From contig NW_027362768.1 of the NCBI RefSeq assembly GCF_046119375.1, forward strand, positions 23,622,001 through 23,686,000: a stretch of DNA of 64,000 nucleotides, read 5' to 3'. Below the pieces are notes generated by a model, which saw nothing but the letters and a program-made list of their open reading frames with translations, was not told the origin of the DNA and did no database searches. The stretch's first letter is position 1, and every line of letters begins with the position of its first letter. This stretch comes from Phyllobates terribilis. Lineage: Eukaryota. This document shows, one piece after another, positions 7,056 to 56,017 of this stretch. The translations under genes were made by a program, and so were the position numbers.

Positions 7056-7878
7056 TGTAGCGCCCCGAGGGTTCGGCCGCTACAGGGGTATTGCACCTCT
7101 GCCAGAGGTGTGATATTCCACTCCCGGGTAAGGATGGAGTATGGACCAGGGCTCAGGTAGCTGCATACAGCACACACACCCCATTTCCGAGGGACAGCTC
7201 AACAGTGCTCCCATTAGTACAGTAATGCAGGCACGACAGACCATGTCCCTGGCTGGAGTGGGGAGGGGGGAGGAAAACCCAGTGATGTAGGAGTAGGAGG
7301 GGACGGTTCCTGAGCGTAGACACGTTTACCCGCGCAGATCCGCGGCAGCTGGACAAAAGTTGGTCACTGGTGAGGCAGGCCAGAGAAAGGACAAAAAGGG
7401 GGTCCTGAGCCAGACTTCTGAACTGCCTGGGAGTTGACCGAGCCCCACAACTGGTGGACGCAGCACGGCTCGGACAGTCACTACCTGTACAGAAGTGACC
7501 CGGAGCACATGAACTGTGAGTAAAAGACATTGGATTGCAGTACGTTGTCTGTGTACTTTCTCGCTTCTCCAGCACTACCGGTACTGGGACTCCCTGCACC
7601 ATCACCCCCATCATCCATTGCACAACCCTGGGGCTACACTCTTCCCGTGGGGAGTTAAACAACCTCAGCTGCGTACACCATCAGCCTCAGGGGATTACCT
7701 TGCAGCGGCGGTTCATAATAACCGCAATCCACGGGTGGCGTAATCGGACAACATGAACAGCACATAGCAGACTACCATTGGCCTGACCACCCTGAGCCAC
7801 GGAACCGGGTTGCCACTACTACCCCCATCGTCTCCTGTTGCCCGGCTCCGAGTGCCCCACGGCCCAGGGGGCGAGTCA
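7056..7878 (+). mobile_element. Solo Gypsy LTR related to the LTRs of the CSD element at 21801
   Basis: TG...CA ends (TGTAGCG...GGGGGCGAGTCA) and a 4-bp TSD TATG on both sides. The first ~90 bp resemble the LTR at 21801. Confidence 0.92.
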
Positions 7879-13139: not shown

Positions 13140-16100
13140 TTGCAGGAAAATTTGATTGAATTTCAGGTATTTGTGGATTGTGGTTCAACACTTAATGTGA
13201 TTGATAAAGGGTTTTTGGAAAACCTTAAATTGAAATCCAAATCTTTGTCATCACCTATTTCTGTGATTGCTATTGATAACACTCCCTTGAAATGTATTAC
13301 TCACAAGGTTGCTGCATTTCCCCTCACTATCAATGGACTTCACCAAGAAGTTTTGGACTTGGTTTTATTACATAATTTACCCTCTGCGGTCGTTCTAGGA
13401 TTGCCTTGGTTAAAACTGCACAATCCTTTGCTGGACTGGTCTACTAATGTGATTAAGTCTTGGAGTCCGAAGTGGTATGATAAATGTTGTAACGGTCGCA
13501 TTGCGGCTGTGGAAAAAGGGGAATTACCTGTACCTATTCAAGATTTTTGGAGGGTTTTTTCGGAGGAGGAGTCGCAAGTTTTACCTCCTCATAGGGATTA
13601 TGATTGCGCCATTGAGTTTGTTCCTGGAGCTACTCTTCCCAATAGTCGCTTGTTTAATCTGACTATCCCTGAAAGAAAGGCCTTGGAGGAGTACATACAG
13701 AATGGCCTGGCTGCTTGTCACATTAGACCTTCTAAGTCGCCTGTGGCAGTTGGATTTTTCTTTGTTAAAAAAAAGGACGGGGGTTTATGTCCATGTCTGG
13801 ATTTTCGTGAAATTAATAAGATTACCGAACGCAATTCCTACCCATTACTGTTAATTCCTGACTTGTTTAACCAGTTAGTGGGGGCCAAGTGGTTCTCTAA
13901 AATTGATCTCCGGGGGGCATACAATTTGTTACGAGTGAAGGAGGGTGATGAATGGAAAACTGCTTTTAACATTCCGGTAGGTCATTTTGAGAATCTGGTG
14001 ATGCCTTTTGGTCTTACCAATGCACCTGCATTTTTTCAGAACCTTATTAATGACATCCTGAGACCTTTGATTGGTAAGAATGTGGGTGTGTATTTGGATG
14101 ACATTTTGATTTATTCACCAGATCTAGAGTCCCATTGGCAGAGTGTACGTGAAGTTTTGCAGTTATTGAGTGATAATTCACTCTTTGCTAAGCTGGAGAA
14201 ATGTGAGTTAGCTGTGCAGAAAATTAGTTTTTTGGGCTACATTGTCTCCAGCGAGGGCTTTGAGATGGACCCTGTGAAGGTTCAGGTTGAGCAGGAATGG
14301 CCTAGGCCTATTGGTTTGAAATCTATACAGAGATTTTTGGGTTTTGCCAATTATTACAGGAGATTCATTAAGAATTTTTCTGTAATTGTTAAGCCTCTGA
14401 CCGATCTCACCAAGAAAGGTGCGAATATGGTCCAGTGGACTACTGAGGCCATTGAAGCGCTTGAGAATCTCAAAGAGAGGTTCAGTTCTGCCCCTATCCT
14501 TATGCAGCCTGATGATGTGGTGCCCCTGAGGGTTCGACCGCCACAGGGATTCTGCACTTCTTTAATGGAGTGTTGTATTCCTCCTCTGAGGTAAGAACAG
14601 TGTGATGGTCAGGACCCTTCCTTCACATACAACACCACACTTCTCCACCAGAGGGGGCTAGAATGCACTAGGTGCTGCCCTCCTGGTTACAGGGAGACTG
14701 GGGAACCAAGAGTTAGGGGAACCATTTAGTGGGTGAGGATGGAGGACTCACATTTTAGTGACACTGTAAAATTCGTATTTAATAAAAAGCCATCTTGGTT
14801 TTTGGTCCTGGTAGTCTAGTTCTTTGATGGTCCTTGTTAGTCAAGTTACCTGGCTGTCATGTACTGTGATCTCCCACCCTGAAAGTGGATCCTGTGTGGA
14901 CCTGCAGTGGATGGAGGCACAGCCCTCGTACCCCGGCCTTGGGACGAGGGGCAGGTTGCAGACAAGGAATGTCTCAACCTGGTCAAGGACCACGACCAAG
15001 AAGGCCCAGAGCTTAAGAGTGTAGCTCCACCGCAAATGGGTCCCAGGGAGGATGCAGACGGAGCGGTATACGCCACCTGTCCTCGTCCACCTGATATATT
15101 CAGAGGGAGCCCGGCTGCAAGAGGGGTACCGGCCCCAGACACCCGACCTTGCTACTCCACGTCCTGGTCGGGAAAGCCCGGTTGGCCCTGAGGATCCCAC
15201 CGGGTAACGGAAAGAGCAGAGCTGCCACCCGTGCCCTTTTTCTGAGAGGAGTTCAGAGGGAGACCCGGCCTATCTACACACCCAGACAGGAAAGGACCCG
15301 GTCTGAAGTCTAGGAACACTCTGGTGCAGGGTCCTGATTTAACGCTGGACTTACTCGGAGGTTGTCGGACCCTCGTCTCTGGTGGCCGCAGAACTCCGCG
15401 AGGAGCAGGGAGTCGCCTTCCTTCTGCCATCTATGATGTGAGTAAAGCCTTGGAAGTTCACCCCTATGGCCTCCGGACTCTTTATTCTGCGCCACACTGC
15501 ACTATGCAGACTTTCTAGACTATTACCCCCGTCATCCTGTCTTTCTGCCCTGAGGCCCTGCTCCGCCTGTGGGGAGTAATAACAACGTTGGCCGCTATAC
15601 CACCATGCCTCAGCGGACTGCAGCGGCGCTGGTGGCCTTCACCAGGTGCCACAGGTGGCGTAGTCGTAATCAGCCACTCAACCCGGATAAGCCCGTACCA
15701 TCCTTTTAATTGTGACGGCCCTGGGCACGGAGCGGGTCCGGGCCACGGCTGCATCGCATCTCTCGAACTTAGGACCCGACTCCGAGTCCCCATCTCTCAG
15801 GGTAAAAAGGGGCTTACAGGAGGCTTTGAGGCGTCACAATGAGACCAAGCCTTTTTTGGTCGAGGTCGATGCTTCATCGGTGGGGGTCGGAGCAGTTTTG
15901 TCTCAGGAGAACAAGGATGGAGTACATCCTTGTGCCTTCTTTTCGAAAAAATTTTTGGAAACCAAACTGAATTATGATGTTGGAAATTTGGAGTTGCTGG
16001 CTATTAAACTCGCGTTTGAACATTGGCGTCATTTTTTGGAAGGTGCTAGATTTCCTATTCAGTTTTTCACAGATCATGAGAATTTGATCTATCTGGATGC

Positions 16101-17230: not shown

Positions 17231-18194
17231 GTGTGGCACCCCAGGGGGTCTGGTTTCTACAGTGGTAGTAATACCATGTCTGGGAGCAAAACAGGAGTTT
17301 CCTGGTCAGGAACACACTACTTGCAACACGTCCTGCTCCAGACCAGAAAAGGGGAGGATCCTGCCCTTTGTAACTGGATCTGGAGGCGGGGTTAGCCAGT
17401 TCAGTCAGTGTGAGGAGTCAGATAGGACACTAAGGAGCAAGGAGCTGAGGACTGGAGCTGTGCAGAGCTTGTCCTGGCCAGGGTATACAGAGAACCGGAC
17501 ACCGGAGTCCGAGGCTGTGGGACCCTTCAAGCCCAGCAGCAGATACCGCAAGGCAGGAGATTGCAGGTCTCCTGGCCCCCAGAAGCCCGGAGGCTCAGCC
17601 ACATGAAAGGACCAGTACCGCCACAGAGGAGCGAGGAATACACGGGATCCGAGTCGCCAGCCATACGGGTGAGCAGCATGTTACACTCAGGGACGTGGGC
17701 TACAACATGACTATAAGCGGGATAGCTAAAAGAGTACAGTCAGAACGGCAGGCCTACAACTCCACCTGGCCAGGGTAATTCTAGGATTGCTCCCAGACTT
17801 ACCAGGCCCTCATCTCTAGCAAGTACTCCTGTCGGGGTCTATATAATTGTCACCAGTAAAGACCTCAGGACTGCACTGCAAAGACTCCGTGTCATTACTA
17901 CTGATCCAGGTACTATCACCACCATCATCCTTACACGCTGCCCTGAAGCTACACTCTTCCTGTGGGGAGTTACACTACCTTGCTGCGCATATCACCAGCT
18001 TCAGCGGACTGCTCCGCAGCAGCGGTTACTAATAACTGCATTCCACAGGTGGCGTAGTCGGACTATACACATAGACTTCCCTGATTTGACCACCCTGGGT
18101 CACGGACCGGGTCGCCGCCACGGTGACTACTACCCCCAGCATCTACAAGGCCCGGCTCTGGGTATCCCCCACGGCCCAGGGGGCGCGTCAACTT

Positions 18195-18212
18195 TGGTGT
18201 AGTCGGCAGGAT
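18195..18212 (+). promoter_or_regulatory. Primer-binding site, tRNA-Ser (AGA-type acceptor)
   Basis: TGGTGTAGTCGGCAGGAT is complementary (one mismatch) to the vertebrate tRNA-Ser 3' end ...AUCCUGCCGACUACGCCA, recalled from memory. Confidence 0.85.
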
Positions 18213-18497
18213 TTCGTGCCCGCGACCACCGGGTACTGCGCGCCTTCACAGACTGTGTCGCATACCGTGGTGAAGATTTCCCGCCATCTGCTGGCGTTTT
18301 CCCGCCATTGTCTGCAATTTTCGGGTCGCCGCGCGAGAAGAAGAGTGGCGGAACCGCTGGAAACTCACGAAGTTCAAAGCCCCTCCCCGCGCGCTGACGC
18401 AACACCTGGTCCTGGAAGGAACCCCAGTGAGCGCTGACGTCAGACGCGTGCGACGCCAGGTCCTACAAGGAGACCATCGCCTGCGGAACTGCGGCCT

Positions 18498-19535
18498 ATG
18501 GAGGAAAAGAGAAGGAAGGTAGGCCACGGTTCACTATGGGGGAGGAAGACGCCGGATATGGAGGGAACTTCCACCGCCAGCGCGGCCGCTGCCGCAGTGA
18601 TGCCATTCACAATGCCCTATATCCCGGGAGCGGCGTGGCTGCCCCAGTACTTAGGAGAGTCGCACACCCTGAGTGACTTCAAAGAGAGACTAAGCAGCCT
18701 GTTTAAGGTATATCCCCTGTCCGAGGAGCAGAAAGTGAGCATCCTTATAGGCCAGTTAATCGGTGCAGCCCAGAGAGAAGTAAAATCCTGGTCAGCCAGA
18801 GAAAAAGGGACTGTAAAAGAGATACTGGCCTGCCTAAAGGACACTTTTGACACCCGCACCACCGCAGATATAAAAATGAAGTTCTATGGGTGCAAACAAC
18901 GGGCACAGGACAGTGTACGGGACTATGCTTTAAACCTGCAGGAGGCGCTGAGGGCCATCAGACAGGTAGACCCTGATAGTGTGCGTGATGCAAACAGACT
19001 GTTAACTGAACAATTTATTGAGGGTTTACTGTCCAGCGCCCACCGAACCCAGCTGCGCATCATGGCTCTGCAAAACCCTGACTTAGACTTTGCTCAGTTT
19101 AAGGACAGGGCCATCCAGGTGCTACGAGAACCAGCATCAAGTGGCGCTACAGCTCACCGCCGCCCGGCTATCACCTACCACCAGGAGGTGGCACCCTTTT
19201 CCCCAGAGCCTGTAGGAGCTGATGCACAGACTCTGGATAATGCCCCGTCAACAGACCTGCACCATCAGGTCCAAGAGCTAACTAAAAGTGTAGCAGCACT
19301 AACCAAAACTGTGCAGTCCTTGCAGGTGTCCCCCAAAGGAAGGATTCAGCTGGCTTCCAGTCCGGAGGACGTCCCGTGGTGCCGACAGAAGAGGATTCCA
19401 CCATCCAGAGGGAGGAACAGCGACCGCTACGACCAGGACGGACAACCCATCTGCCGCCGCTGCAACCAACCAGGACATTATGCAAGGTACTGTCATTTAA
19501 ACGAGCAAAACCTGGGGCAGTGGGCCAACCCCTAG
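18498..19535 (+). CDS. gag: Element B Gag (capsid plus CCHC nucleocapsid), open reading frame
   Basis: 345-aa ORF with FYGCKQRAQDSVRDYALNLQ, LLTEQFIEGL and CRRCNQPGHYARYC. Confidence 0.88.
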   Translation: MEEKRRKVGHGSLWGRKTPDMEGTSTASAAAAAVMPFTMPYIPGAAWLPQYLGESHTLSDFKERLSSLFKVYPLSEEQKVSILIGQLIGAAQREVKSWSAREKGTVKEILACLKDTFDTRTTADIKMKFYGCKQRAQDSVRDYALNLQEALRAIRQVDPDSVRDANRLLTEQFIEGLLSSAHRTQLRIMALQNPDLDFAQFKDRAIQVLREPASSGATAHRRPAITYHQEVAPFSPEPVGADAQTLDNAPSTDLHHQVQELTKSVAALTKTVQSLQVSPKGRIQLASSPEDVPWCRQKRIPPSRGRNSDRYDQDGQPICRRCNQPGHYARYCHLNEQNLGQWANP

Positions 19536-21800
19536 GCATAAGACCACCAGGCCCATCAAGCTGGCGAGACAAATATGTGGGAGGACGACCGGTCCTACCT
19601 GTCGTGCTGGACGGCTTTCCAATGAGCGCGTTGCTGGACACTGGATCCCAGGTGACCACCATCCCCTACATTCTTTTCAAACGGTACTGGACTGACTCTG
19701 ACATCACCCGCCGTCCAGATGAACATTTGAGCATTTATGCCAGCAATCGTCAGCCTGTACCTCAGGTGGGGTTCAAAGAAGTGACCATAAAGGTTGGCAA
19801 AGTCGAGCTGCCAGCACAAGGACTGATTATTGTCGACATTGATCGCCGAGAAAGTCATCCTATGATAACTTTAGGCACTAATGTCATTGAAAATTGACTT
19901 GCAGAAATAATTGTCTTATTGCAGCAGGTTGCGGAAACCGCCAGTTCCAGCCAGCAGCGCGTTCTACAAAGGAAGATCCGAGCCCTGATGAAAAGACAGC
20001 AGGTAGAACTGTCTGGTGGTGAAATTGGTAGTGTTAGGATGAGCGACCCATTCCCAATCGCCATGCCCCCAAAAAGTGAGATGATGATATGGTGCCGGGC
20101 AGCTATTGGTCTAAGGGGTAGAAATTACTAGACCTTGGTAGAGCCCGTCTACTCTGACAGTAGGTCCACCATTTTGACAGCCAGGGGGGTGATTGATGTC
20201 CGCCATGGGAGGGTACCCGTCCGTATCCTAAACATTGGGGAAAGAGAAGTCCATTTGCCCCGGTATGCCACCCTAGCCAAACTGTTCACTGTCAACCAGA
20301 ATTCTATAAAGACAGTGGAACCCTTGCCTCCATCCCAACAGGCTGAGGATAACTGCTTCAAGGGACAAATGGAGGACTGGTGCCAGAAGCTGCATGTGGG
20401 CACTGACTCCACCCATCCACATCAAAAACAAGGAGTATACAGGGTGGTCCAGGAGTATGAGAGGGTCTTCAGTAAACACCCACTCGACTTCGGGCTGGTA
20501 AAGGGGGTTCAACACCATATCCCCACGGGAGACCATCCACCCATTAAAGAAAGGTATCGGCCTGTACCTCCTGCACACTACCAAAATGCCAAAGGGATGT
20601 TGCGAGAAATGAAGGAGGCTGGGGTAATAAGAGACAGTTGTAGCCCCTGGGCAGCTCCATTAGTTCTTGTAAAGAAAAAGGATGGCACTATGAGAATGTG
20701 TGTAGACTACAGGAAAATCAACCGCATAACACACAAAGATGCATACCCGCTACCCAGGATAGAGGAGTCACTAGCTGCGTTAAAATCTGCTAACTATTTC
20801 TCTACTTTGGATCTTACTAGTGGGTATTGGCAGGTTCTTGTAGCAGAGACGGATAAGGAGAAAACCGCATTCACCACCCCGATGGGCCTCAGCGAGTTCA
20901 ACTGCATGCCATTCGGGCTCTGCAACGCCCCAGGTACCTTCCAGCGGTTGATGGAGTGCTGTCTGGGACATAAGAATTTCGAGACAGTCCTGCTGTACCT
21001 GGATGACGTCATTGTATACTCCCAGACGTATGAGGACCATCTGAAGCACCTGGCGGAAGTGTTTGATGCCCTGGCTGGCTTTGGTCTAAAGGTGAAGCCC
21101 TCAAAATGTCATCTGCTGAAGCCCAAGGTACAGTACCTGGGGCACGTGGTGAGCGCTGACGGTGTGGCTCCAGACCCCGATAAAATCACAGTAATCAAGG
21201 ACTGGCCAAGACCCTCCACCATAAAGGAAGTGCGGCAGTTCCTCGGGTTGGTAGGCTACTACCGAAGATTTATTCCAGGCTTCCCCAAGATGGCGGCACC
21301 CATGCAGGACATCCTGGTAGGCCAGTCCAGGAAGGCCAAAAACCAGAAGCCACCATTCAAATGGGACAAGCTGGAAGATGAGTCCTTCCACCAGCTAAAA
21401 ATGGCCCTCACGGGGGGACGAGATCCTGGCTTACCCTGATTATGGCCAGCCCTTCATCCTCCACACGGACGCGAGCAACGTGGGACTGGGAGCGGTGCTG
21501 TCCCAGATCCAGCAGGGCAGAGAACGGGTAATCGCTTATGCCAGCAGGAAGCTCCGGCCCACAGAAAGGAACCCTGAAAATTACAGCTCCTTCAAGCTAG
21601 AGTTCCTCGCAGTGGTATGAGCAGTGACAGAGCGCTTTAAACATTACCTCGCCTCTCCAAGTTCACCGTATTCACAGACAACAACCCGCTGACACACCTG
21701 GACACTGCGAAACTTGGTGGCCTGGAGCAGAGATGGATGGCCCGACTCTCCAATTATGAGTTCACCATCAAGTACCGGGCTGGGCGCAAGAATGCCAACG

Positions 21801-24800
21801 TGTAGCACCCTGAGGACTCGGCTGCTACAGGGGTATTGCACCTCGACCCAGAGGTGTGGTATTCCACTCCCGGGTAAGGATGGAGTGTGGAACTGAGCTT
21901 AGTAGGCTGCATGCACTACATACATCCCATTTCCGGGGGACAGAACAACGGTACTCCCACCAGTATATGTGCAGGTACGACAGCGTCTGTCCCTGGCTGG
22001 AGTGGGAGGGGGGTGGAACATCCCAGTAGTGTAGGGGCAGATAGGGGGAGTACTCTGGGTAAAGCTAGGAGCCCATTGGGTGCTGGTCACCTGGGTTCAC
22101 ACATAGAGGGAGTATATAAGGTGGGCACCATCTTAGAATAGGGTCTTTGGTCTTTAGTCAGAGAGAGGAGGAGCAGAGCAGAGGAGCTCAGCCAGGAGGG
22201 CTGACAGGGAGCTGTGGCTCCGGCTGGGCCCAGCTCCAGAGCAAAGCCTGCAGTGAAGAGAGAGAGGAGGAAGAAAGGCCCAGAGAAGCAGAGACAGAGG
22301 GAACCCTAAGATCCCAGAATCAGACCAGAAAGGGTGAAGGGTTGGCAGAAGAGGGCACCGGATCCCAAGCTGGCGGAGGCAGAAGTAACCCTTAACCAGG
22401 AACCGGAGGTCGTGGGCAAGTTTTGCCACGACCCTCACCATATCCACCAGGAAGGCACACCACGAGTAGGGCCAGGGAAGCCAGAGAAGGTTCAACCACT
22501 AAGAGGCCCGAGGGAGCTGGACAGAGGTGGATCCCTGGTGGGGACGGCCAGGAGAAAGAGAGTGAAAGGGAAGCTCAGGACCACGCTCCGGAACTGCCTG
22601 GGGGTTAGCCGAGTCCCGCACCTGTTGGACGCAGCACGGCTCGGGTGGTCACTCAAGGCCAGAGTGACTAAAGCAACATCAGTGAGTAAAAACCCTGAAA
22701 CTGCATCTCCTGACTCTGCCTCTCCTTCCTGCATCATCACAACCCCCATCATCCACACCTGCTGCCCTGAGGCCATACCCCTCCCGTTGGGGGTTATACC
22801 ATCACTGCTGCACATATACCACCGGCCTCAGCGGACTGCTCTGCAGCGGCGGCTTCAAAGCCGCACTCAACGGGTGGCGTAGTCGACACTTAAACAACAT
22901 CTACAAAGACTGCCACACACTTAGTTTGACACCCTGGGCACGGACCGGGTCACCTCCACAAGGACTACTACCCCCATACAGATCCGGCTCCGGGTATCCC
23001 TTGAACATGGCCCAGGGGGCGCGTCAACTTTGGCGTAGTCGGCAGGATAACGTGCCCGCAACCACCGGGTACTGCGTGCCTGAAGAAAAGTTCGTATTTA
23101 CCGTAAAAAGAAGTCTCCCGCCAATTCCGGAGGGTCCCCGCCATCGGACGCCATCTCGGATCGGTTCCCGCCGTTTGCCCGCCATCTGCAGTCTTTTCCC
23201 GCCATCCACAGAGTTTCCCGCCATTGGGAAGCGGTTCCCGCCATCTGAGAAGATTTCCCGCCCTGGCAGAGCGGACGCCATTATGGGCGTGCCAGAGGGT
23301 GGCAAGAGGCCACCTCCCATCGTGGGCCAGGACCAAGAATGGCGCCAAAAGCGGAAACCGCCCCCACCAGCAGAGACTGTGATGCTTGAGATGTCCATCA
23401 GCGTGAGGGGACTGCCCCTGGAACTGACAATCACCAAGTTGCCCCGGGACCACCCTCAGGATGGGCGGAGAGAGAACAAAAGAGAGAAGATGGGAGCAGC
23501 TTGGAGGAGTCTAGAGAGAACGCACCCGGAGATGGAGGGAGAGGCAGGCAGCACCGACCCAGTGGTCAGGAGCCTGTTGCAAGCGACTACCCCAGAAGGC
23601 CTGGTGGAGATCCTGGCGCAGCTCCCCAGAGATCGGGAGCATGCACGGACCGCACTGGAGGGCTTGGCTCAGAGGATGGCCCGAGTGCAGCGAGACGTAC
23701 TGGCCGCGTGGAGCAGAGAAATGGCCCAGCAGGCTGGAACCCGCCAGCAAAAGACACCGCCAGCAGCGAGGAGCACGCCTGCCCTTGAAGGAAGAGCAGG
23801 AGGGACGAAGGCCGGAGACGGCGCCGTGGAGGGAGCTGAAGTAACGGAGGCAGGTAATGGGGACGTCTACACCCCGTACCCGGAGGCCGAGAACCTGCCC
23901 CAGCTCCCCGTCGCAGAGCCCGAAATCCCATTCACTGTGCCCGTCGCTGCACCGCCACTGCTCCAAACTAGGCCTCAAGCGGCAGGAGCCGCGGCCGCGC
24001 TCCCCGTGACGTCACGCGCCTCAAATCAGAGTGCGACCAAACAGGAAGCGCCATCGGCCTGGTCACAGGGCAGAGTACCCCCGGGCGCAGCCGTCTCCAC
24101 AGTGCCCTTCACATTCAGAGTGCCCCCGGGCGCCGCGGCAATCATCGCGCCCGCAACCTCCATCATGCTACCCCTGGGAGAAGACTTGTTTACCCAGCAT
24201 ACTTGCCCGGATGGGCAGCCCTTTGTGTGGCCGCCGGAGTTCGTCAATCCCCGACTCCGGAGGGAACGGCCTCTGGATGAGCCCCTGATCCCGGCTCCGG
24301 CGCCCGCCAAGATCACCCCACTCTCGTTGGAGGAGGCGCAGTTCGCGTAGGACCCCACTGGAGAAGACCTCATCGGGTTCACCCAAGAGACCCGGGCGGC
24401 CGCAGCCCAGCGTGCAGAGTGCTGCCGACAGCAGTTAGAGGTCTTCAACAGAGAAAGGAGAGAGAGGCGGGTCCGCGAGGAGCGGCTGCAAATCCGGAGA
24501 GCAGAGCAGAAAATCCGGACCCGACGGAACCCCCGTGCAGCCCACGGTCCCCGTGCCACCGGGACTGTAATCAAATTCCAACTGCAGCACGGTTGGGGCT
24601 TCATCAGGGATCACAAAACCCCCGGTGACGTTTTTGTAACCCGCAGAGATGTCGAGTCTCACCTACCGGAGGGACACCGTGGTCGTGACCTGTACCTGGG
24701 TGACGAGGTCACCTTCACCCGGCACCAGTGTGCCAAAGGACCCTATGCCCTTCATGTACATCGCCTGACGGAAGAAGAGCTGCGGTGTGAGGAGGAACAA

Positions 24801-26595
24801 GAGGACCCGGACGGGTCTGAAGCCTACCCTCAGGAAGGAGCAGGAGGGCATCGTCACCATTAAGAGGTGAACTGAAACTGTATATAGTTACCCGTAAGGG
24901 TATATGCCATGCTGCTTAATTAAAATGAGTTCCCCGTTGGGACAAGTGTGAACTGTTCCAGTGTGTCCCATTTCCCCACAGGCTGAGGACTGTGAGCAGC
25001 CATCCCTTTTTCCCACTGGCCGAGGACTGAGAGCGGCCATATCCATTGTATATAGTTGCGCTTCTTAAAGCGCCCCCTACTGGTTTTATAGGAAACTGTT
25101 TTTTCTACCAGAGACTGTGGCACTTACCTGGTCACAATTTGCACAAGTGGCCAGAGGTCAAAAATGTTTTACATGAAAAGTTTTATTATGCTGAAAGAGT
25201 TAATATTATTTTATGATGTGTCTGTAACATTTTAAGAGAGAAGTACCTCCCATAAAGGGATGGGTTGAAAGTTATATTTTATATGTAAGTGCACTTTCAA
25301 AAATTTGTATGTTTTTGGATATTTTATTCTTTTACAGCCCGAGGACGTGCTGTGATTTACCAGGGGGGAATGTAGCACCCTGAGGACTCGGCTGCTACAG
25401 GGGTATTGCACCTCGACCCAGAGGTGTGGTATTCCACTCCCGGGTAAGGATGGAGTGTGGAACTGAGCTTAGTAGGCTGCATGCACTACATACATCCCAT
25501 TTCCGGGGGACAGAACAACGGTACTCCCACCAGTATATGTGCAGGTACGACAGCGTCTGTCCCTGGCTGGAGTGGGAGGGGGGTGGAACATCCCAGTAGT
25601 GTAGGGGCAGATAGGGGAGTACTGTGGGTAAAGCTAGGAGCCCATTGGGTGCTGGTCACCTGGGTTCACACATAGAGGGAGTATATAAGGTGGGCACCAT
25701 CTTAGAATAGGGTCTTTGGTCTTTAGTCAGAGAGAGGAGGAGCAGAGCAGAGGAGCTCAGCCAGGAGGGCTGACAGGGAGCTGTGGCTCCGGCTGGGCCC
25801 AGCTCCAGAGCAAAGCCTGCAGTGAAGAGAGAGAGGAGGAAGAAAGGCCCAGAGAAGCAGAGACAGAGGGAACCCTAAGATCCCAGAATCAGACCAGAAA
25901 GGGTGAAGGGTTGGCAGAAGAGGGCACCGGATCCCAAGCTGGCGGAGGCAGAAGTAACCCTTAACCAGGAACCGGAGGTCGTGGGCAAGTTTTGCCACGA
26001 CCCTCACCATATCCACCAGGAAGGCACACCACGAGTAGGGCCAGGGAAGCCAGAGAAGGTTCAACCACTAAGAGGCCCGAGGGAGCTGGACAGAGGTGGA
26101 TCCCTGGTGGGGACGGCCAGGAGAAAGAGAGTGAGAGGGAAGCTCAGGACCACGCTCCGGAACTGCCTGGGGGTTAGCCGAGTCCCGCACCTGGTGGACG
26201 CAGCACGGCTCGGGTGGTCACTCAAGGCCAGAGTGACTAAAACAACATCAGTGAGTAAAAACCCTGAAACTGCATCTCCTGACTCTGCCTCTCCTTCCTG
26301 CATCATCACAACCCCCATCATCCACACCTGCTGCCCTGAGGCCATACCACTCCCGTTGGGGGTTATACCATCACTGCTGCACATATACCACCGGCCTCAG
26401 CGGACTGCTCTGCAGCGGCGGCTTCAAAGCCGCACTCAACGGGTGGCGTAGTCGACACTTAAACAACATCTACAAAGACTGCCACACACTTAGTTTGACA
26501 CCCTGGGCACGGACCGGGTCACCGCCACAAGGACTACTACCCCCATACAGATCCGGCTCCGGGTATCCCTTGACCATGGCCCAGGGGGCGCGTCA
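21801..26595 (+). mobile_element. Non-autonomous LTR retroelement CSD-1 (no gag or pol; single ORF with a cold-shock domain)
   Basis: LTRs 21801-23026 and 25371-26595 differ by about 7 substitutions and one indel. TSD AACG, PBS TGGCGTAGTCGGCAGGAT (23031-23048), PPT CCAGGGGGGAA, 2344-bp interior. Confidence 0.95.
23283..24863 (+). pseudogene. About 526-codon ORF: helical N-domain, Pro/Ala linker, coiled coil, C-terminal cold-shock domain; one in-frame TAG at 24348
   Basis: The same frame after the TAG gives TGTVIKFQLQHGWGFIRDHKTPGDVFVTRRDVESHLPEGHRGRDLYLGDEVTFTRHQCAKGPYALHVHRL (about 24561-24767), with RNP1 GWGFI and RNP2 DVFV. Confidence 0.85.
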
Positions 26596-29500
26596 AACGC
26601 ACATGCACTATCCAGGATGCCTAACTTGCCAAATGGGGGAGAAGACCCAGAAGAACTGGAAGAGATAGAAATCCCCGCTTTCCACCGTCATGGGATAACT
26701 CAGTGCTCCCACTGTGTGAAAGACAGGTACTCTGCCACCAAAGAGGCCACGTTCAATCCCTTGCCCCACCACAGCTGGGCAGAAACACAAGACAGTGACC
26801 CGGCCGTCCACCTAGTCAAAGAGTTGCTGACACGAGCCGACTCATACCCTGACCCAGATGCTCCAGAGGAGACCAAACAGCTGTGGAAAGAGAAGAGTAA
26901 GCTGTTCATCTATGAAGGGAAGCTGTGTCGAAGAACTGTCAACTCCCGGACGCACGAGCTGGTCTGGCAGGTGGTAGTCCCGAGGCGGGACGCGTCTATG
27001 GTCTTGGAAGCGTACCACGATGGAGCAGGACACTTCGGATGGAAAAAGCTGGAAGTCCTGCTGCGTGATCGGTTCTATTGGGTTGGCATGAGAGGAACAG
27101 TCGAGAAGTGGTGTCGAGACTGCGGACCGTGCAACCTGAGAAGGAAAGACCGTGCCAGCCAGAAGGCCCATCATCACCAAGCAGCCACTCGAACTGGTAG
27201 CCCTAGACCATGTGAAGCTATCCCCGAGCAGGTCAGGCTATGTCTACGCTCTCACCATCGCAGACCACTACTCCCGGTTCCTGGTAGTAGTGCCAGTCAA
27301 GGACCAAACGGCTCAGACAGCAGCCAGAGCTTTCCAGCAGCACTTCTGCCGCCCGCATGGTTACCCAGAACGTGTGCTAACTGACCAAGGTCCTGCCTTC
27401 GAGGCAGAAGTATTCCAGGAGTTCTGCAACCTGTACGGCTGCAAGAAGATCAGGACAACGCCTTGTCACCCCCAGACCAACGGGATGTGTGAAAAGATGA
27501 ACCAGGTGGTGACAGACCTACTGAAGACATTGCCCCTGGAGGAACGCAGTCTGTGGCCAGAAAAGTTGCCAGACCTGGTGGACCTCTACAATCATATCCC
27601 AGTGAATTCCACCAACTGCACACCAGCGTACCTGTTGCGAGCGAGACCTGGTAAGCTGCCCATCGACCTGGATATGGGAGTTCTGACACCAGAGAACGCC
27701 TCACCAGATGCGGATTGGGACACTGAGTGGCAACAGCAATACCGTAAGGTACAGGAGAGTGTTGAAAGAAGTCTGTCTCAAGCAAGAGAAAGGCAAGAGA
27801 GGACTTACAATTAACATGCACCAGCTGTTCCCCTGTCACCTGGAGAGAAAGTCCTAAAGAGGAAGAGGCGACTTCACAAGTTGGATGACCAGTGGGAAAA
27901 AGAGCCGTACACCATTTTACCATCAAACCATGATAACACCAAAGTGTGCCTCATAAGTAAAGACGGAGGAGAGACCACAGCAACAGTTTCCAGAGACCAC
28001 CTGAAGAAATGTCCCGAGCAGCTACAGCATGCTGAAGAAGGCCAAGATATCCCTCAACCCGCAGAGGAAGTGGAAGAAATGGTCAGCACAGTACTCGGAG
28101 AATTTCCCCAGTCATGGACACAAGTGAATAATGCCATTGTTGTGCCAGTCCTTACATTTCTCCAACCAGCCCCTCAAGCACCTACAGAAGTCTCAGTAGA
28201 GTTGGAAGAACCATTGGCCCCGGAGACAGAAGATTCCTCACCAGCAGACCAGGAGAATCTACCCTCTGCTAGTAGCGAGCCTGTCGTACCCACGGTAAGC
28301 CAAAGGATCCGTAGGAAGCTGCCCAACCTACCAGTGACACCTCAAAATACCAGTAGTGCAGATCACACAGTGCCCACTACACCAGGGGTAGGGAAAGGGG
28401 ACCAGAGCAGAACACAGACAGACAGCGTGTTACGCAGGTCTACCAGAAGCACCAGAGGTCAAATTCCTGCTCGTTGGAGAATATAAAATGTAATGTATAT
28501 TGCAAATGTTTTATGTGTGTATTAATGTGTTTTCCCAGTTAACCGACAGGTTTCAAAGACTTTCAGGTTATGGACAATGGATAACCAAAAACTTTGTCTG
28601 TAAATAGTTGCACCTGGAAAGTGTCCCTTTGTGCCAGACCACAGAACAAAAACCCGTGGAGGTGGCTGAAGACGTGGTCCAACATCCGGATCATCAATGC
28701 CCTGTAGCCACCCCAGGGCCTCCGTGGAGGGTTTGGGATGGGTCCCTCAAACTACATCTTCGGTGAAATGGACACCTGGTTGCGGATGATACCGTGACCT
28801 ATAATGACTGTAAATATGTTCATGTATTGTATATTGTTACCTGTTATACTTTTGCAAGATATGTTCAGTCCCGGAGTACTGAAATTTACTAGGGGGGAAT
28901 GTGGCACCCCAGGGGGTGTGGTTGCCACAGTGGTAGTAATACCATGTCTGGGAGCAAAACAGGAGTTTCCTGGTCAGGAACACACTACATGCAACACCTC
29001 CTGCTCCAGACCAGAAAAGGGGAGGATCCTGCCCTTTATAACTGGATCTGGAGGCGGGGTTAGCCAGTTCAGTCAGTGTGAGGAGTCATAGAGGACACTA
29101 AGGAGCAAGGAGCTGAGGACTGGAGCTGTGCAGAGCTCGTCCTGGCCAGGGTATACAGAGAACCGGACACCGGAGTCCAAGGCTGTGGGACCCTTCAAGC
29201 CCAGCAGCAGATACCGCAAGACAGGAGATTGCAGGTCTCCTGGCCCCCAGAAGCCCGGAGGCTCAGCCACACGAAAGGACCAGTACCGCCACAGAGGAGC
29301 GAGGAATACACGGGATCCGAGTCGTCAGCCGTACGGGTGAGCAGCACGTTACACTCAGGGACGTGGGCTACAACACGACTATAAGCGAGATAGCCAAAAG
29401 AGTACAGTCAAAATGGCAGGCCTACAACTCCACCTGGCCAGGGTAATTCTAGGATTGCTCCCAGACTGACCAGGCCCTCATCCCTAGCATGTACTCCTGT

Positions 29501-31926
29501 CGGGGCCTATATAATTGTCACCAGTAAAGACCCCAGGACTGCACTGCAAAGACTCCGTGTCATTACTACTGATCCAGGTACTATCACCACCATCATCCTT
29601 ACACGCTGCCCTGAAGCTACACTCTTCCTGTGGGGAGTTACACTACCTTGCTGCGCATATCACCAGCTTCAGCGGACTGCTCCACAGCGGCGGTTACTAA
29701 TAACCGCATTCCACAGGTGGCATAGTCGGACTATACACATAGACTACCCTGGTTTGACCGCCCTGGGTCACGGACCGGGTCGCCGCCACGGTGACTACTA
29801 CCCCCAGCATCTACAAGGCCCGGCTCCGGGTATTCCCCACGGCCCAGGGGGCGCGTCATTTGGTTATACTGATACTTATATACAGTATCTCCTTTTTACC
29901 ATTTTGTTAATATGGATACTTCGACGGCAATACTGTGAATACTGTCTCTTTAAAATTTTGACCATAAGACAGATATCATTACTAAACATTGTGTTATGTT
30001 AATAATCTGTTGTTTTGTTTTTACTTTAGAACTGCGCTTAATACATCCCACTTCACGTTTATCTGTGTCCTGACACTATTTTCTAATAAAGTATGTTTTT
30101 CACTGTTGTATTCTTGCTAATATTCTATGTCATGTCACAATTCCCTTTTTCCACTTCCACAGATGCCTAAAAGTTTCTCCTAGCACTTATGCGGTATTTA
30201 CCGCTCATACTATTGTGGATTGCCGACATCCTTTTAGATACCTCTTCCATCCTGACGCCATGTTCCCATACCAACCAGGATGCATATGAACATCCGTAAA
30301 TCGCTTCTTATTGCACAAACTCCGGTCTCCACCCACAGTGATGTCACTTCACCATGACTACTGCGAAGCCTGCATTGCCCAGTCTTTTCTTTTCCCCACA
30401 CGCCCACAGTGAGTGATGACTTTTCCATGTCTACTGCGATGCTTGCAGGATTGTGACGCGCCCCCTGGGCCGTGGTGTTCTCGGCAGCCGGGCAGGTCCT
30501 GTATTGGGGTAGTCTCAGTGGCAGTGACCCGCTCCATGGCCCAGGGCGGTCAAATAAAGAACAGTCAATTGGGGAAATAAAGTTTTTGGGGATAATGTTC
30601 GTGACGCCACCCATGGTATGCGGCTATATGGGGCCAACGCTGCGGTGCAGATCCACTGGGGCTGATGGTGACGCAGAAGATAGTGCAGCTCTTCACGGGC
30701 AGAGCTAAGCTCCAGGGCAGTTTATGGTGATTTGAAAAGATAGATGACAGTGTAGTGCAGGGCTGAGGGCGCAGGTAATGACCAGACAACACAAGAATGG
30801 CGGTTTCCTCTACCTTTACTTGAGGCTTGACGGTGCACACCGGGACACTGGTAATAGCTGGTGATGGAGATCCGGGCGACCTAGAAGCAATTTGGGGATC
30901 CACCTCGCCAGGTGGAGTTGTAGGCCTTCCCTCTGCGCTATCCTCTTTGGCCCTGCTGCTTAAAGCCCTTTTCAGGTGTCGTTCCTTCGTGGCGGCGCCG
31001 GGCCCTAGTATGCTACTGAGCCGCCGGATGTTTGGTGGGGCCAGGAGACCTGCAGTCTCCTGCCCTACGGATTTAGCTGTCGGGACTTTAGTACCCGAAC
31101 AACCACAGGCTCCGGTGTCCTGTTTCTTCCGCTTTTCTCTGGGGCGAGCTTGGTCACAGCTCCTTTCCCCAGGTTCTCCTCGTCGCTCTTCTGTCTCCAA
31201 CTCCCTTTTCTCACTCCAACTGACTTTTCTAGACCCCGCCTCCAGGCTCCAGTTTAAAGGGGAAGCTCCCCTGAAACTGGGATAGAGCTCCCCCTTCCGG
31301 TCTGGGGCCAGGAAATGTGTTGGATGCTGGTGTTACCTGATAAGGGGACCCCTCCTTGCTTCTAGGCATGGCAACACCCCCTGTGAGGGAGGCAATGCCA
31401 ATGTGGCATCCGGACTCCTGGAGTGCCACATTCCCCCCTAGTTAAATTCAGTACTCCCGGACTGAGGACACCTTTAGAATTAAACAATAACGATATATAT
31501 TCCAAAAAAATTTACAAAGTCTCAAAAAGGCAAAAATTGCAGAACAACAAAAACCAAACCAAAATTGGGAGCAGTCATTGGGCACCTAGTCTTTACGCCA
31601 CTATCCAGAAATTGTCTTTTCCCGGGTACATGAAGGTTGGCTGGTGGGAACCGCCTCAACCCACTTCGTGTATCGTCCCTGGGCGTGGCTTCAGGGCACT
31701 CTGTCGGTGGGCCTGGTTTTCGGCCACGCCTGTGGTTTATTTTCAAGGCCAACAATTAACTTTACTCAACATTGTTCTGACCACACCTAGTCCTGTGGTC
31801 CATTTGTCCATAAATATAATAACTATATACACTCACGATTGCTTAAAAGTTCTTACAGGAAGTCTCTGTAGGCTCTCATGCTTAACGGTTGCAATTATAT
31901 ACTATACACTATTATCTTATTACACC

Positions 31927-37079: not shown

Positions 37080-38691
37080 CTTCCTCCCCCCCAGTGAACC
37101 TCAGACATGTCCTGACTCCTGGGTTTCGGCTGGCGCACCAATCTGCTGCTCTGCAGGCGAGAGGGATCGCTTACCCCGCGGTTCCCGATCGGGCCTCCTG
37201 CTTTCCCTCCGCTGACGTCAAATCACGTTATTATATAGCTCAGCAAAGTCTATGGCACACAACACCCAGTTATACCGGGCTAAAATACTGTTCGTGACGC
37301 CAAGTATGGCGCTCCTCCTGGGCCGTGGGGTACTTGGTCCTGTATTGGAGTAGTCTTGGTGATACTGACCCGGTCTGTGGCCCAGGGCGGTCAAATAAAG
37401 AACAGTCAATTGGAGAAATAAAGATTTGGGGATAATGTTGTGACGCCACCCGTGATATGCGGCTATATGGGGCCGCCGCTGTAGTGCAGATCCACTGGGG
37501 CTGATGGTGACGCAGCATAGATGGTTCAGCTCTCCACAGGCAGAGATAAGCTCCAGGACAGTATATGGTGATTTGAAAAGGTAGATGTTGTCGGCAGGGA
37601 CAGTGTAGTGCAGGGCTGAGGGCGCAGGTAATGACCAGACAACACAAGAATGGCGGTTTCCTCTACCTTTACTTGAGGCTTGACGGTGCAGACCAGGGCA
37701 CTGGTAATAGCTGGTGATGGAGATCCAGGCGGCCTAGAAGCAATTTGGGGATCCACCTCGCCAGGTGGAGTTGTAGGCCTTCCCTCTGCGCTATCCTCTT
37801 TGGCCCTGCTGCTTAAAGATATGCTGCGGCCCTCGTTCCTGAACAATCGTTTATTCCTCGCCGTATGGCAGGCAGCTCGAGCCCTTTTCAGGTGTTGCTC
37901 CTTCGTGGCGGCGCTGGGCCCTAGTATGCTACTGAGCCGCCCGATGTTTGGTGGGGTCAGGAGACCTGCAGTCTCCTGCCCTCCGGATTTAGCTGTCGGG
38001 ACTTTAGTACCCGAACAACCACGGACTCGGGTGTCCTGTTTCTTCTGCTTTTCTCTGGGGCGAGCTTGGTCACAGCTCCTTTCCCCAGGTTCTCCTCATC
38101 GCTCTCCTGTCTATAACTCCCTTTTCTCACTCCAACTGACTTGTCTAAACCCCGCGTCCAGGCTCCAGTTTAAAGAGGAAGCTCCCCTGAAACCGGGTTA
38201 GAGCTCCCCCTTCTGGTCTGGGGCCAGGAAATGTGTTGGATGCTGGTGTTACCTGATAAGGGGACCCCTCCTTGCTTCTAGGCATGGCATCACCCCCTGT
38301 GAGGCAGGCAATGCCAATGTGGCATCTGGACTCTTGGGGTGCCACAATTGCACCACCTGTTCCTCTCGTAACACGCCCTTCATTTAAGTGCTCACTGGCT
38401 AGTCTGCTGTCCTAAGGTGACACTCCTCCACGATGACGCATGAGCCCATCCTACTTACACCATGCCCTTATTGGTCCATCTTTTCTATTTAGTAATTGGT
38501 CTCTCTATTTAAACCAGGAAACTCCTATCTTACACTAGTGCTTACGCTCCTTATAGCAGTGGATACAGAGGAACAAGCTGGTATACTTTTGCACTGTTTC
38601 TGACCTTATGTTCCTGGGCAGTTTGGTAATTCATATTTTTTGTCTTGTTTCCTCATTCTGGGCTGTCCAACTGCCGATAGGGCATGGTATA

Positions 38692-42228: not shown

Positions 42229-44043
42229 TAGTGATGGGCGAACCCGAACAGTAAAGTTCAGGGTCCGTACCGAACACCTACTGTTTGGGCACGGACCCCG
42301 AACATGGACTTCCTCAGTAAGTCCGTGTTACTGTTTGAGCTCTGGCTCGGGTTCGGGTGTTTCCCGCTCTGTCACAGCGCAGGAAACACAGGCTCTGATC
42401 GGCGGTAATACCATTACCGCGGTCAGAGCGCTGTGGCATCATGTTGACAGGTGTCAGCATGATGACATAGCTGTGACAGTAACTCGCGGTAAAAAGCTTA
42501 CCGCGGGTCATAGGCGACGGCTGATGGTACTACTACCACCATCAGCCGGCGCCTCCTGTCGTAGGGAACAACAAGCGCAGGCACTGCTGGATGGGAGCAG
42601 TAGTCTCCCATCCGCCAGCGCCTGTGCTCTGCTGAAAGTAAAAAAAAATGTTACCATTAATAAAAAAAAGTTCAAATAAAATTAAAACACATTATACTCA
42701 CCTACACCTTGTCCCCAATGTTTGGCGCTCCTGCAAAAAAGAAAAAAGAAAAAAACTCCATATACTTGACTCGCCCCCTGGGCCGTGGGGCACCCGGAAC
42801 TGGGCTTCAGTGCGATGATGGGGGTAGTAGTGGCAACCCGATCCCGTGGCTCAGGGTGGTCAGACCAAATGCTGTGTTAGTCTATTTGTAGAGTTATGAA
42901 TGTCTGACTACGCCACCCGTGGATTGCGGTCAGGGATGACCACTGCTGCTAGGCAGACCGCTGAGGCTGATGTTGGTGTGCAGCACAGGGGTAGGATAAC
43001 TCCCCACGGGAAGAGTGTAGCCTCAGGGCAGCGTATATGAATGCTGGGGGTGATAGTGCAGGCCGCAGTAATAAAAGTTCAGAGTCCGCTTCAAACAGTC
43101 CAGGGTCTTTATTGTAGGTATTACTACTGACCCAACAGGAGTACCGGGTAGGAATGGGCCTGGGTATCTGAGAGCACTCGGGCGAGCCCCACTGGTCAGG
43201 GTGAGTGTGAAGGCCTACCGTTCTCTCTCTGCCCTTGCTGACTATCCCCCTTTTCGTGGTGTGATAGCCCACGTCCCTGAGCTGGCCGTGTACTTCGCCT
43301 GTATGGCTTTCGACTCGGGCCTTAGGTACCTTTTGCTTTTCCGTGCTGTACCGGTCCCTCTGTGTGGCGGAGCCTCCAGGCTTCTTAGGCCAAGGGACCT
43401 GAAATCCCTCACAGGATGGTTCTCTGCTGCTGGGCTTGCAACCCTGACAGCCTCGGACCCCAATGTCCGGTAGTGATTCTCTCAGCCAGGACCGGCTCTC
43501 GTCGCCTCTGTCCCTGGCTTGCAGTCTCTCCTCTGCCTCACGGACTCCTCAGCTGCTGCTGACCTGTCCCTCTTCTCTGAGAACCCTTCTGGACACTTCA
43601 GAAGTGGGTTCTGGTCTCTCTAACCCTGCCCCAGTTCCAGCTTTTATAGGGGCAGCCTGCTCCCCCTACTGGCCTGGGACAGGAGGTGCTGCATGCTAAT
43701 GGTCCCTGACCAGGGAACCTCCCTCCTGCTCTCAGACACAGCCTTTAATATTTGTGGCATCCAGGCCTGGGGTGACACATACTCACCGTACACCTAGTCC
43801 CCGAAGCCCATGATCACCTGTAATAAAAGTAAAATAATAAAGCAACCTCATCCTCACCTGTCTGCTGCAGTCCAAATAGCAAGGGCCAGGGATATTTGGC
43901 TCCCCCATTCACATGAATGGGTTCCTATTTTCGGGTTCGGGGTTCGGGTACTGTTTTGGTACCCGAACCCCAACTTTTAAAAAACTGTTCGGCATTCGGC
44001 TCAATTAGCCAAACCCGAACAGTTACAGGTTCGCCCATCACTA
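42229..44043. mobile_element. hAT MITE
   Basis: TIR TAGTGATGGGCGAAC and GTTCGCCCATCACTA with an 8-bp TSD GTCCCAGG. Confidence 0.93.
42767..43779 (-). mobile_element. Solo Gypsy LTR nested in the hAT MITE
   Basis: Minus-strand end ...CCACGGCCCAGGGGGCGAGTCA with TSD TACT on both sides. Confidence 0.9.
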
Positions 44044-55400: not shown

Positions 55401-56017
55401 CACCAAGAAGGTAACTATAGAGGACCCAGGGGGTGGAACAGACGTCGCCCGACAAGGCCCGCAGGTACCGGATTGGGACACTTGGTATGAGGTGCAGGGA
55501 AATGGCCAGGGAGAGAACACACAGAAGGGGGTCCCGCTAAGTACTCCGGAGATATCTGAGGGTCGACTGAATCCCTCCCTGAGTAAGCGCAGCACGACGA
55601 GGGAAGTTACACCGGTACCGGTAACTTGGATTGCAACAAGCGTGAGTAAAGACCCTGAGGACTGCACCCCACTGTCTCTGTGATTATTAACTGCGCCATC
55701 ATCCCTGCACTACAACGCCCAGCATCACCTACTACATCTACACTGCCCTGGAGCTAAGCTCTACCTTTGGAGAGCCACACCAGCTTTGCTGCACTAACAT
55801 CAGCTCCAGAGGACCTGCTCCGCAGCGGCGGCTCCACATAGCCGCATACCACAGGTGGCGTCACGAACTGTACATAAAAACTCTATTAAATTCCCCTGTA
55901 AATAATCCCCTTTTGAATGACCGCCCTGGGTCACGGACCGGGTTATCGCCACTGTGACATCTCCCGTAGCAACGAACGGCCTGGCACCGAGTACCCCACG
56001 GCCCAGGGGGCGCATCA
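52456..56017 (+). mobile_element. Non-autonomous LTR element CSD-2 (5' LTR and PBS missing; 3' LTR at 54800-56017)
   Basis: PPT CCAGGGGGGTA followed by TGTGGCG..., LTR end GGGGGCGCATCA, a CSD ORF upstream, and 3' UTR blocks shared with CSD-1 and element B. Confidence 0.85.
52855..54099 (+). pseudogene. About 414-codon homolog of the CSD-1 ORF; one in-frame TAA at 53926
   Basis: IVVKFDLDAGWGFVREPHTNRDVFVNRRDVEPHLQQGHPSRDL*PGDFVTFTRHKGERSWYALQLYRV, plus a shared LGQRMER..DAIAGWKKE N-terminal block. Confidence 0.85.

Follow-up and report, generated by a model that had tools for sequence, protein, structure and literature searches.

Elements of a Ty3/Gypsy group that is very abundant in the 10.6-Gb genome of the frog Phyllobates terribilis carry, inside each LTR, a second match to the 3′ end of that tRNA-Ser which primes their reverse transcription. 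This internal match, here called site I, has very probably been selected to fit the primer. The question of how LTR elements choose a single tRNA, open it and hold priming back until a particle is ready for it has a long history, most of the work having been done on HIV-1 and yeast Ty elements. The frog elements offer a natural experiment on it, with two primer types between which all three primer-matching sites have been switched, single mis-primed copies that serve as controls, and strand-transfer accidents, fixed in about a hundred or more cases, in which pairing in vivo has left its mark. Tens of thousands of copies carry, besides the primer binding site (PBS), primer-matching sites I and II. 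An earlier sequence-only reading had pointed out the internal site; the third site (site II), the pseudoknot and the strand-transfer accidents described below go beyond it. We found no description of an arrangement in which a duplicate dock for the primer 3′ end is joined to a conserved pseudoknot, and it provides a structural signature for annotating the group.

Every LTR of the group carries a second match to the primer 3′ end

The window, that is, the whole 64,000-nt stretch of DNA that was analysed (source genome 10.57 Gb), contains three Ty3/Gypsy elements of one group, named B, C and E, and four further LTRs of the same group (Table 1). The LTRs have TG...CA termini and are separated from the PBS by a 4-nt spacer, 4-bp TSDs flank the three elements and two solo LTRs, and a purine tract precedes the 3′ LTRs; the TG...CA LTRs, short TSDs, PBS and purine tract typical of Ty3/Gypsy are thus all present. 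In both B and E, Pfam matches to gag, protease, reverse transcriptase (RT), RNase H and integrase follow one another as is typical of Gypsy. The Gag of B matches PF14893 at 32.1 bits (cut-off 25) and is PNMA-like, which points to a place for the group with the Barthez lineage, where Table 1 of PMC3670739 puts the PNMA genes. The nearest RT proteins are those of poison frogs (89% and 77%) and fish. As side observations, the spacers lie at 18191-18194, 23027-23030 and 37303-37306 and measure 8 nt instead in loci L068 and L069; the cold-shock domain (Pfam CSD) of the pol-less element C is encoded at 24351-24863; the A-family LTR is inserted as a whole into an unrelated Gypsy element, where it separates the RT part from the RNase H part, and the RT of this element is 42% identical to that of B; and an ORF at 46584-47498 with a BED zinc finger is probably a piece of a hAT-type transposon.

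Table 1. Coordinates of elements, primer-matching sites and structural features in the window
Feature	Location	Coordinates	Strand	Remarks
Element B		17232-29858	+	4-bp TSD; PNMA-like gag, PR, RT, INT
5′ LTR	B	17232..18190	+	
3′ LTR	B	28900-29858	+	
Element C		21801-26595	+	nested, pol-less, cold-shock domain ORF
LTRs	C	5′ 21801-23026; 3′ 25371-26595	+	
Element E		38346-30454	-	5′ LTR 38346-37307; 3′ LTR 31430-30454
PBS	B	18195..18212	+	tRNA-Ser AGA type, one CpG-type mismatch, 4 nt past LTR end
PBS	C	23031..23048	+	AGA type, perfect
PBS	E	37285..37302	-	CGA type, one mismatch at position 16
Site I	B 5′ LTR	18050..18061	+	12-nt complement of tRNA-Ser(AGA) 3′ end
Site I	B 3′ LTR	29718..29729	+	one mismatch
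Site I	C 5′ LTR	22875..22885	+	
Site I	C 3′ LTR	26444..26454	+	
Site I	E 5′ LTR	37437..37448	-	CGA type, degenerate
Site I	E 3′ LTR	30596..30609	-	CGA type
Site I	solo LTR 7056-7878	7736..7747	+	AGA type
Site I	A-family LTR (about 14500-15837)	15656..15666	+	AGA type
Site I	solo LTR 43779-42767	42904..42915	-	AGA type
Site I	LTR 54800-56017 (purine tract before LTR)	55856..55868	+	CGA type, 13 nt matched
AGTAAA hexamer, conserved	B 5′ LTR	17855..17860	+	likely poly(A) signal
AGTAAA hexamer	C 5′ LTR	22685	+	
Structured domain directly 5′ of site I	B	17943..18049	+	five helices
Helix P1	B	17943-49/17998-18004	+	
Upstream hairpin	B	17953-57/17966-70	+	loop 17959-65 pairs 18043-49 (pseudoknot)
Second crossing helix	B	17982-87/18015-20	+	
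Front hairpin	B	18022-27/18034-39	+	named by the earlier reading
Site II	B 5′ LTR	18117..18130	+	complement of tRNA nt 1-11
Site II	B 3′ LTR	29785-29798	+	
Site II	C LTRs	5′ 22955-22968; 3′ 26524-26537	+	
Site II-like stretch	E 3′ LTR	30512-30522	-	
Site II	A-family LTR	15742-15752	+	11/11 with tRNA-Ser(AGA) 5′ end
Site II	LTR 54800-56017	55948-55958	+	11/11 with tRNA-Ser(CGA) 5′ end
3′ U5 domain	B	18093..18181	+	helices 18093-97/18177-81, 18107-13/18149-55

A search of the window with a 14-letter pattern that covers both primer types, allowing one mismatch, returned 10 matches against 0.40 ± 0.59 expected from 100 shuffles. Each of the 10 LTRs of the group holds exactly one; the sequence-only reading had claimed a site for every LTR. 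All the coordinates that it listed hold; it had missed the site in the 5′ LTR of E and had counted 14 nt, instead of 13, for the match at 55856. From the start of site I to the LTR end the distance is 141 nt in B, 152 nt in C and 142 nt in E. Among 44 representatives, the match to the primer is near-invariant up to position 11 in the AGA type (20 rows) or 13 in the CGA type (24 rows) and collapses at positions 15 and 16 (3/44 and 0/44). Positions 1-11 correspond to the CCA, the discriminator and the 3′ acceptor strand of the tRNA, position 11 being the end of the acceptor stem. The linker beside the site diverges freely while positions 1-11 stay near-invariant, in families whose Gag proteins are only 38% identical.

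An AGTAAA hexamer lies 146-236 nt upstream of site I in 43 of the 44 representatives, with ATTAAA in the remaining one, and is followed by CA and then by a GU-rich stretch. With the hexamer taken as a likely poly(A) signal, and judged by its position alone, site I is probably located in U5 and would be present once per RNA; a search for poly(A)-tailed retrocopies ending behind the hexamer gave none. Several observations concern the surroundings of the site. In six loci (L020, L043, L046, L069, L070 and L035) U3 types have been exchanged between U5 types, and the breakpoints fall close to the hexamer, which is what recombination at a short R would produce. We considered and dropped a promoter role for the TATA-like words of the CGA linker; they are missing in most AGA families, and a start there would leave no R. 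In L102 and L138, two independent rearrangements broke at nearly the same base of this linker, behind TATA-like words and some 100-115 nt before the PBS-proximal stem. The main AGA clade has in its linker a sequence partly complementary to site I and to the PBS (18075-18085 and 22905-22915), which might be a folding switch of that clade alone; this anti-site is absent in the CGA and A families, and we rejected it as a general feature.

Site I follows the isodecoder used as primer

The tRNA-Ser(AGA) genes of the host (L083-L087) and its tRNA-Ser(CGA) gene (L075) end in complements of the two PBS types, in agreement with the isodecoders that the sequence-only reading had assigned to B, C and E; the PBS of B and that of E each have one mismatch (Table 1). 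Fourteen of 20 fetched tRNA-end matches were not genes. They were element junctions where reverse transcription had read into the tRNA, at least seven of them as far as the variable arm or anticodon loop. Because such read-through elements carry their copied tRNA sequence, tRNA-Ser(AGA) and tRNA-Ser(CGA) are the actual primers. Copies of tRNA-Ser well beyond 18 nt were seen in L069, L073, L074, L076-L079 and L082 (around 1420-1525), and the longest ones (L073 and L078) halt in the anticodon loop, the effect expected of a modified base at that point.

Genome wide, pattern counts of site I/PBS types gave 49,098 AGA/AGA and 1,301 CGA/CGA combinations, against 6 AGA/CGA and 1 CGA/AGA. The concordant total of 50,399 versus 7 is a lower bound that includes segmental duplicates and misses families with different LTR ends. 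All seven discordant matches turned out to be artefacts: five stem from one family whose LTR terminus looks like the CGA word, one matched in the flank, and in one an AGA site has lost 3 nt. The prediction that the site follows the primer isodecoder therefore passed its genome-wide test. Six positions distinguish the two primers, and all six are changed in site I. Agreement was also complete in the first 30 junctions taken without selection for site I, where site and PBS were readable in 28 and concordant in 28/28; of the other two, one had no site I (L001) and one no PBS. Among the 14 read-through elements, 12 had a concordant site I, one a degenerate one and one none. This last element, L074, has an unrelated LTR and the same primer; therefore, site I is no by-product of tRNA-Ser use. 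Since the pol-less element C retains both site I and the PBS, the arrangement acts in cis.

Site I is inherited and has been switched together with the PBS

We then searched the genome for other PBS types and obtained 40 matches, seven of which look copied from other tRNA-Ser isodecoders. Five of six mis-primed copies that were fetched retain the parental site I, and the sixth lost the site by deletion; the site is therefore inherited and not recopied in each cycle. Mis-priming rewrites the PBS alone and its products stay single, so the agreement between the two sites is kept by selection or by rare copying plus selection. Genes exist for two of the mis-priming tRNA-Ser types, and no exact gene for the third was found among 100 of 197 matches listed. 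One of the two types is encoded in a tandem array of about 196 tRNA-Ser(CGA/TGA) genes (G000:C11:604.78-604.99 Mb and beyond, L149-L159), whose isodecoder is not used as primer by any family of the group.

The large concordance counts go back to a small number of evolutionary events. Trees of the U5 flanks built without site I (73 rows) need two changes of primer type, none of the bootstrap trees (0%) being compatible with one, and each form of the front hairpin occurs with both primer types. The AU test rejected a single AGA clade (P = 0.025) in a careful tree of 66 rows, from which 11 rows had been left out (duplicates, near-copies, long branches or rows lacking the site), and did not reject it in three quick trees of 44 rows (P = 0.23-0.73). 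The RT tree gave no help: few intact own RTs were available, two rows were nested unrelated or uncertain, and the A family had no RT within 7 kb. Overall, the flank comparison points to one certain and one probable co-switch of site I and PBS, of six bases each.

A pseudoknotted domain and a match to the tRNA 5′ end accompany site I

The 3′ strand that directly precedes site I belongs to a 7-bp helix, its partner being the loop of an upstream hairpin. The covarying hairpin that the sequence-only reading had described ahead of the site holds up, but as only one of five helices. In the pseudoknot and two further helices 98.3% of the cells are paired and 9 of 19 pairs show double changes; the covariation score of these three helices was reached by 0/500 shuffles and beat all slid controls as well, in a test that sequence relatedness inflates and in which the helices were picked from the same alignment. 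Anchor-based counts back the fourth (crossing) helix and the front hairpin. At the family level, sense-strand G.U pairs are tolerated in the domain. Single-sequence folding gave inconsistent results, with a mean unpaired probability of 0.26-0.33 for site I, which is thus not consistently open. No Rfam model, those of ribozymes, IRES, xrRNA and T-box included, reached its gathering threshold in the window, five loci yielded four sub-threshold, chance-level matches, and an HDV-like reading of the domain was ruled out both by eye and with Rfam.

Between site I and the PBS, and ending 60-86 nt upstream of the latter, lies site II, which matches the 5′ end of the tRNA. It was the strongest of 24 tRNA windows scanned (-4.0 kcal/mol versus shuffles, at the same place in 36/44 representatives). 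The cognate tRNA pairs better than the non-cognate one in 34/44, with G.U-type variants present, and by the order of its halves the site corresponds to the tRNA 5′ end and not to the PBS. Pairing extends over 11/11 positions in most CGA families and 12/12, with G.U pairs, in the A family, and is bulged or mismatched, and weak, in the main (largest) AGA clade; ungapped pairing of at least 10/11 was found in 35/37 CGA loci versus 15/35 AGA loci. In B, the site forms a 3-nt bulge with the AGA tRNA and pairs ungapped at 10/11 positions with the CGA tRNA, fitting the latter better. Site II is held in the loop of a 3′ U5 domain whose helices are well paired and covary weakly. The same scan gave no anticodon signal and values of -1.5 to -2.3 kcal/mol versus shuffles for T-arm and variable-arm windows at the pseudoknot loop, where the T-arm match is weak and lost in the main AGA clade.

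Strand-transfer accidents mark pairing at site I

At 71 genomic places, a full 18-nt tRNA copy is followed by the linker that normally stands behind site I. Thirty of these were fetched, and 29 consist of an LTR end, the 18 nt and a repeat of the U5 end, in most cases no more than 1 nt off register. A wider pattern gave 175 matches; reading the first 100 by eye, we found 72 with the tRNA tail, 13 with the shared 11-13 nt alone and 15 ordinary sites. CGA types, whose match is longer, account for 17 of the 85 duplication junctions versus 2.6% of the elements. Many duplicated segments derive from another subfamily than the LTR in front, and therefore two RNAs were co-packaged. In the simplest reading of these junctions, plus-strand strong-stop DNA would anneal to the site I complement carried by another minus strong-stop DNA. 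The duplications are rare, with a count in the order of 0.2-0.3% of that of PBS junctions, and have the appearance of errors; as costly products, present at about a hundred or more junctions, they argue for selection on site I. In some cases the duplication is found in both LTRs or in triplicate (L145/L146, L124 and L138/L139; G000:C7:436224292 and 436231437), so that duplicated leaders have been passed on in later rounds. Elsewhere, two LTRs 3.8 kb apart are both duplicated, one with and one without the tRNA tail (G000:C2:430437188 and 430440959).

An 18-nt tRNA copy in the context of site I occurs at only three places genome wide. Two are deletions to the PBS with no matching 3′ LTR within 10 kb. 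The third (L160/L163) is a full-length element in which the site of the 5′ LTR has been overwritten in register and that of the 3′ LTR has not, which gives a route for co-switching. There is little sign of routine internal priming, and the earlier suggestion that site I serves for alternative priming finds almost no footprint, although such priming would in any case yield poorly integrating products.

A proposed parked primer and its alternatives

The sequence-only reading had also suggested that site I is a second tRNA dock. Comparative evidence makes this the best-supported reading, in a form to which we give about an even chance: sites I and II of the leader would hold the tRNA-Ser parked in a non-priming state, and its 3′ end would then be handed to the PBS. 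The three primer-matching sites stand in a fixed order in the leader (likely U5): site I, site II and the PBS with its usual 18-nt match. With a tRNA held at both I and II, the acceptor stem would be open and the 3′ end would be fixed at the base of the pseudoknot, where extension from site I would be hindered. While the 5′ end stayed anchored at II, the 3′ end would move from site I to the longer and more stable PBS match, probably with the help of nucleocapsid. Nearest-neighbour hand sums, which ignore the folding of the leader itself and tRNA modifications, give PBS + II an advantage of 3-9 kcal/mol over I + II. A need for three matches would explain why single mis-primed copies founded no families, and as a side cost the cDNA complement of site I would trap the tRNA-copied plus-strand tail, leading to duplication of the U5 end. 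More tentatively, and with a good deal of doubt, U5 might be seen as a tRNA-gated switch, in which the double pseudoknot and two acceptor-strand sites would form a T-box-like clamp that picks a single tRNA-Ser isodecoder, separates the strands of its acceptor stem, keeps the freed 3′ end away from RT and times the onset of reverse transcription; such a switch would lock the primer choice in some 50,000 elements and be updated only by rare tRNA-templated overwriting.

One moving tRNA and two tRNAs bound at once predict identical sequences, and the sequence evidence is the same for both. It is possible, if fairly unlikely, that a second tRNA sits on site I while the first occupies the PBS and site II, bridging two genomic RNAs or marking them for packaging. 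tRNA-linked dimers have been proposed for Ty3 (PMC5371799 and PMC11381356), and the duplicated segments from other subfamilies show that two RNAs are co-packaged; however, we found no palindrome or other bridge, deletions of parts of the Ty3 PBS do not stop packaging according to PMC11381356, and the place of site II midway between site I and the PBS suits one anchored tRNA.

Rather improbably, site I might act at the cDNA level, its complement in minus strong-stop DNA mimicking the tRNA end and pairing with PBS RNA or with the plus-strand tail so as to aid primer release or strand transfer. The sole directly footprinted pairing is of this kind (29/30 fetched of 71; 72/85 junctions from the first 100 of 175), but the events are error-like at their order of 0.2-0.3% of PBS junction counts, and the sense-strand G.U pairs of the flanking structure, together with a site II whose partner is the tRNA, point to a function at the RNA level. 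We regard as very unlikely that site I is a neutral relic, an old tRNA-templated copy that strand-transfer accidents have sometimes overwritten, giving concordance without function. The copying route exists, as L160/L163 with its 5′ LTR site overwritten to 18 nt demonstrates, yet places of this type number only three genome wide, positions 1-11 are near-invariant beside a diverging linker and 38% identical Gag proteins, no discordant family was found, and the site brings costly duplications.

A decoy role for 3′ tRNA fragments, also raised by the sequence-only reading, is highly improbable, even if such fragments do exert their effect on LTR elements via the PBS (PMC7472051, section 4.3). An 18-22-nt 3′-tRF would use its seed to pair with PBS positions of about 12-21, and these are missing from site I; a further copy in cis would give the RNA one more target and remove none, and site II is left unexplained. 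Equally remote is a DNA motif such as a CTCF-like or other factor site, which site I may resemble: the purine-rich core around the beginning of the site shows high conservation in both LTRs, but the seven bases before the site covary with the upstream loop and those after the site start follow the tRNA type, neither of which fits a protein site.

Relation to known primer contacts

In FIV, a U5 loop pairs with the 5′ end of tRNA-Lys3, and site II would be the same kind of contact; FIV is not known to have a duplicate 3′-end site. Our literature search returned no account of the U5-loop contact; PMC5371799 states that there is extra pairing in FIV. Two sites for primer tRNA in one Ty3/Gypsy RNA are found in Drosophila gypsy, where two 11-nt sites match tRNA-Lys2 and one primes; according to PMC1635307, the second gypsy site is located at the RNA 3′ end, and its partners in the tRNA are the anticodon and T stems. 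The frog elements, in contrast, duplicate the 3′-end match within the LTR, and their third site is complementary to the 5′ strand. In yeast Ty3 and Ty1, as in the frog elements, several separate segments grip the primer, and the Ty1 leader is pseudoknotted; unlike here, these segments pair with non-overlapping acceptor, T and D arms and the PBS is not recopied from the tRNA, as PMC5371799 and PMC11381356 describe them. In the frog elements the PBS is recopied and two sites compete for one tRNA 3′ end. Thus, sites I and II are extra primer-complementary segments outside the PBS, as in a multipartite PBS, and site II and the PBS pair with the primer without overlap, but site I overlaps the PBS match entirely. 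The A-rich loop and primer activation signal of HIV-1 are similar in that such non-PBS U5 contacts must change together with the PBS for a stable primer switch, which is what one or two switches show here; they differ in pairing with the anticodon or T arm and not with the CCA end (PMC7793103 and PMC11181671).

No description of a duplicated primer 3′-end match was found in searches of the open literature, and the available main text of two poison-frog genome papers does not mention primer sites. No relatives were found among viral contigs, 11 metagenome loci had no usable LTR-PBS, and viral and prokaryote collections gave 126 chance-like pattern matches, five of them exact and 0/5 with a second site. 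The accidents at site I have a counterpart in HIV-1 aberrant plus-strand transfer, where, according to PMC12657518, tRNA copies longer than 18 nt and misdirected second jumps are fixed in integrated DNA. Read-through into the tRNA and misdirected jumps are common to both systems, but in the frog elements the jumps have one fixed, conserved landing site.
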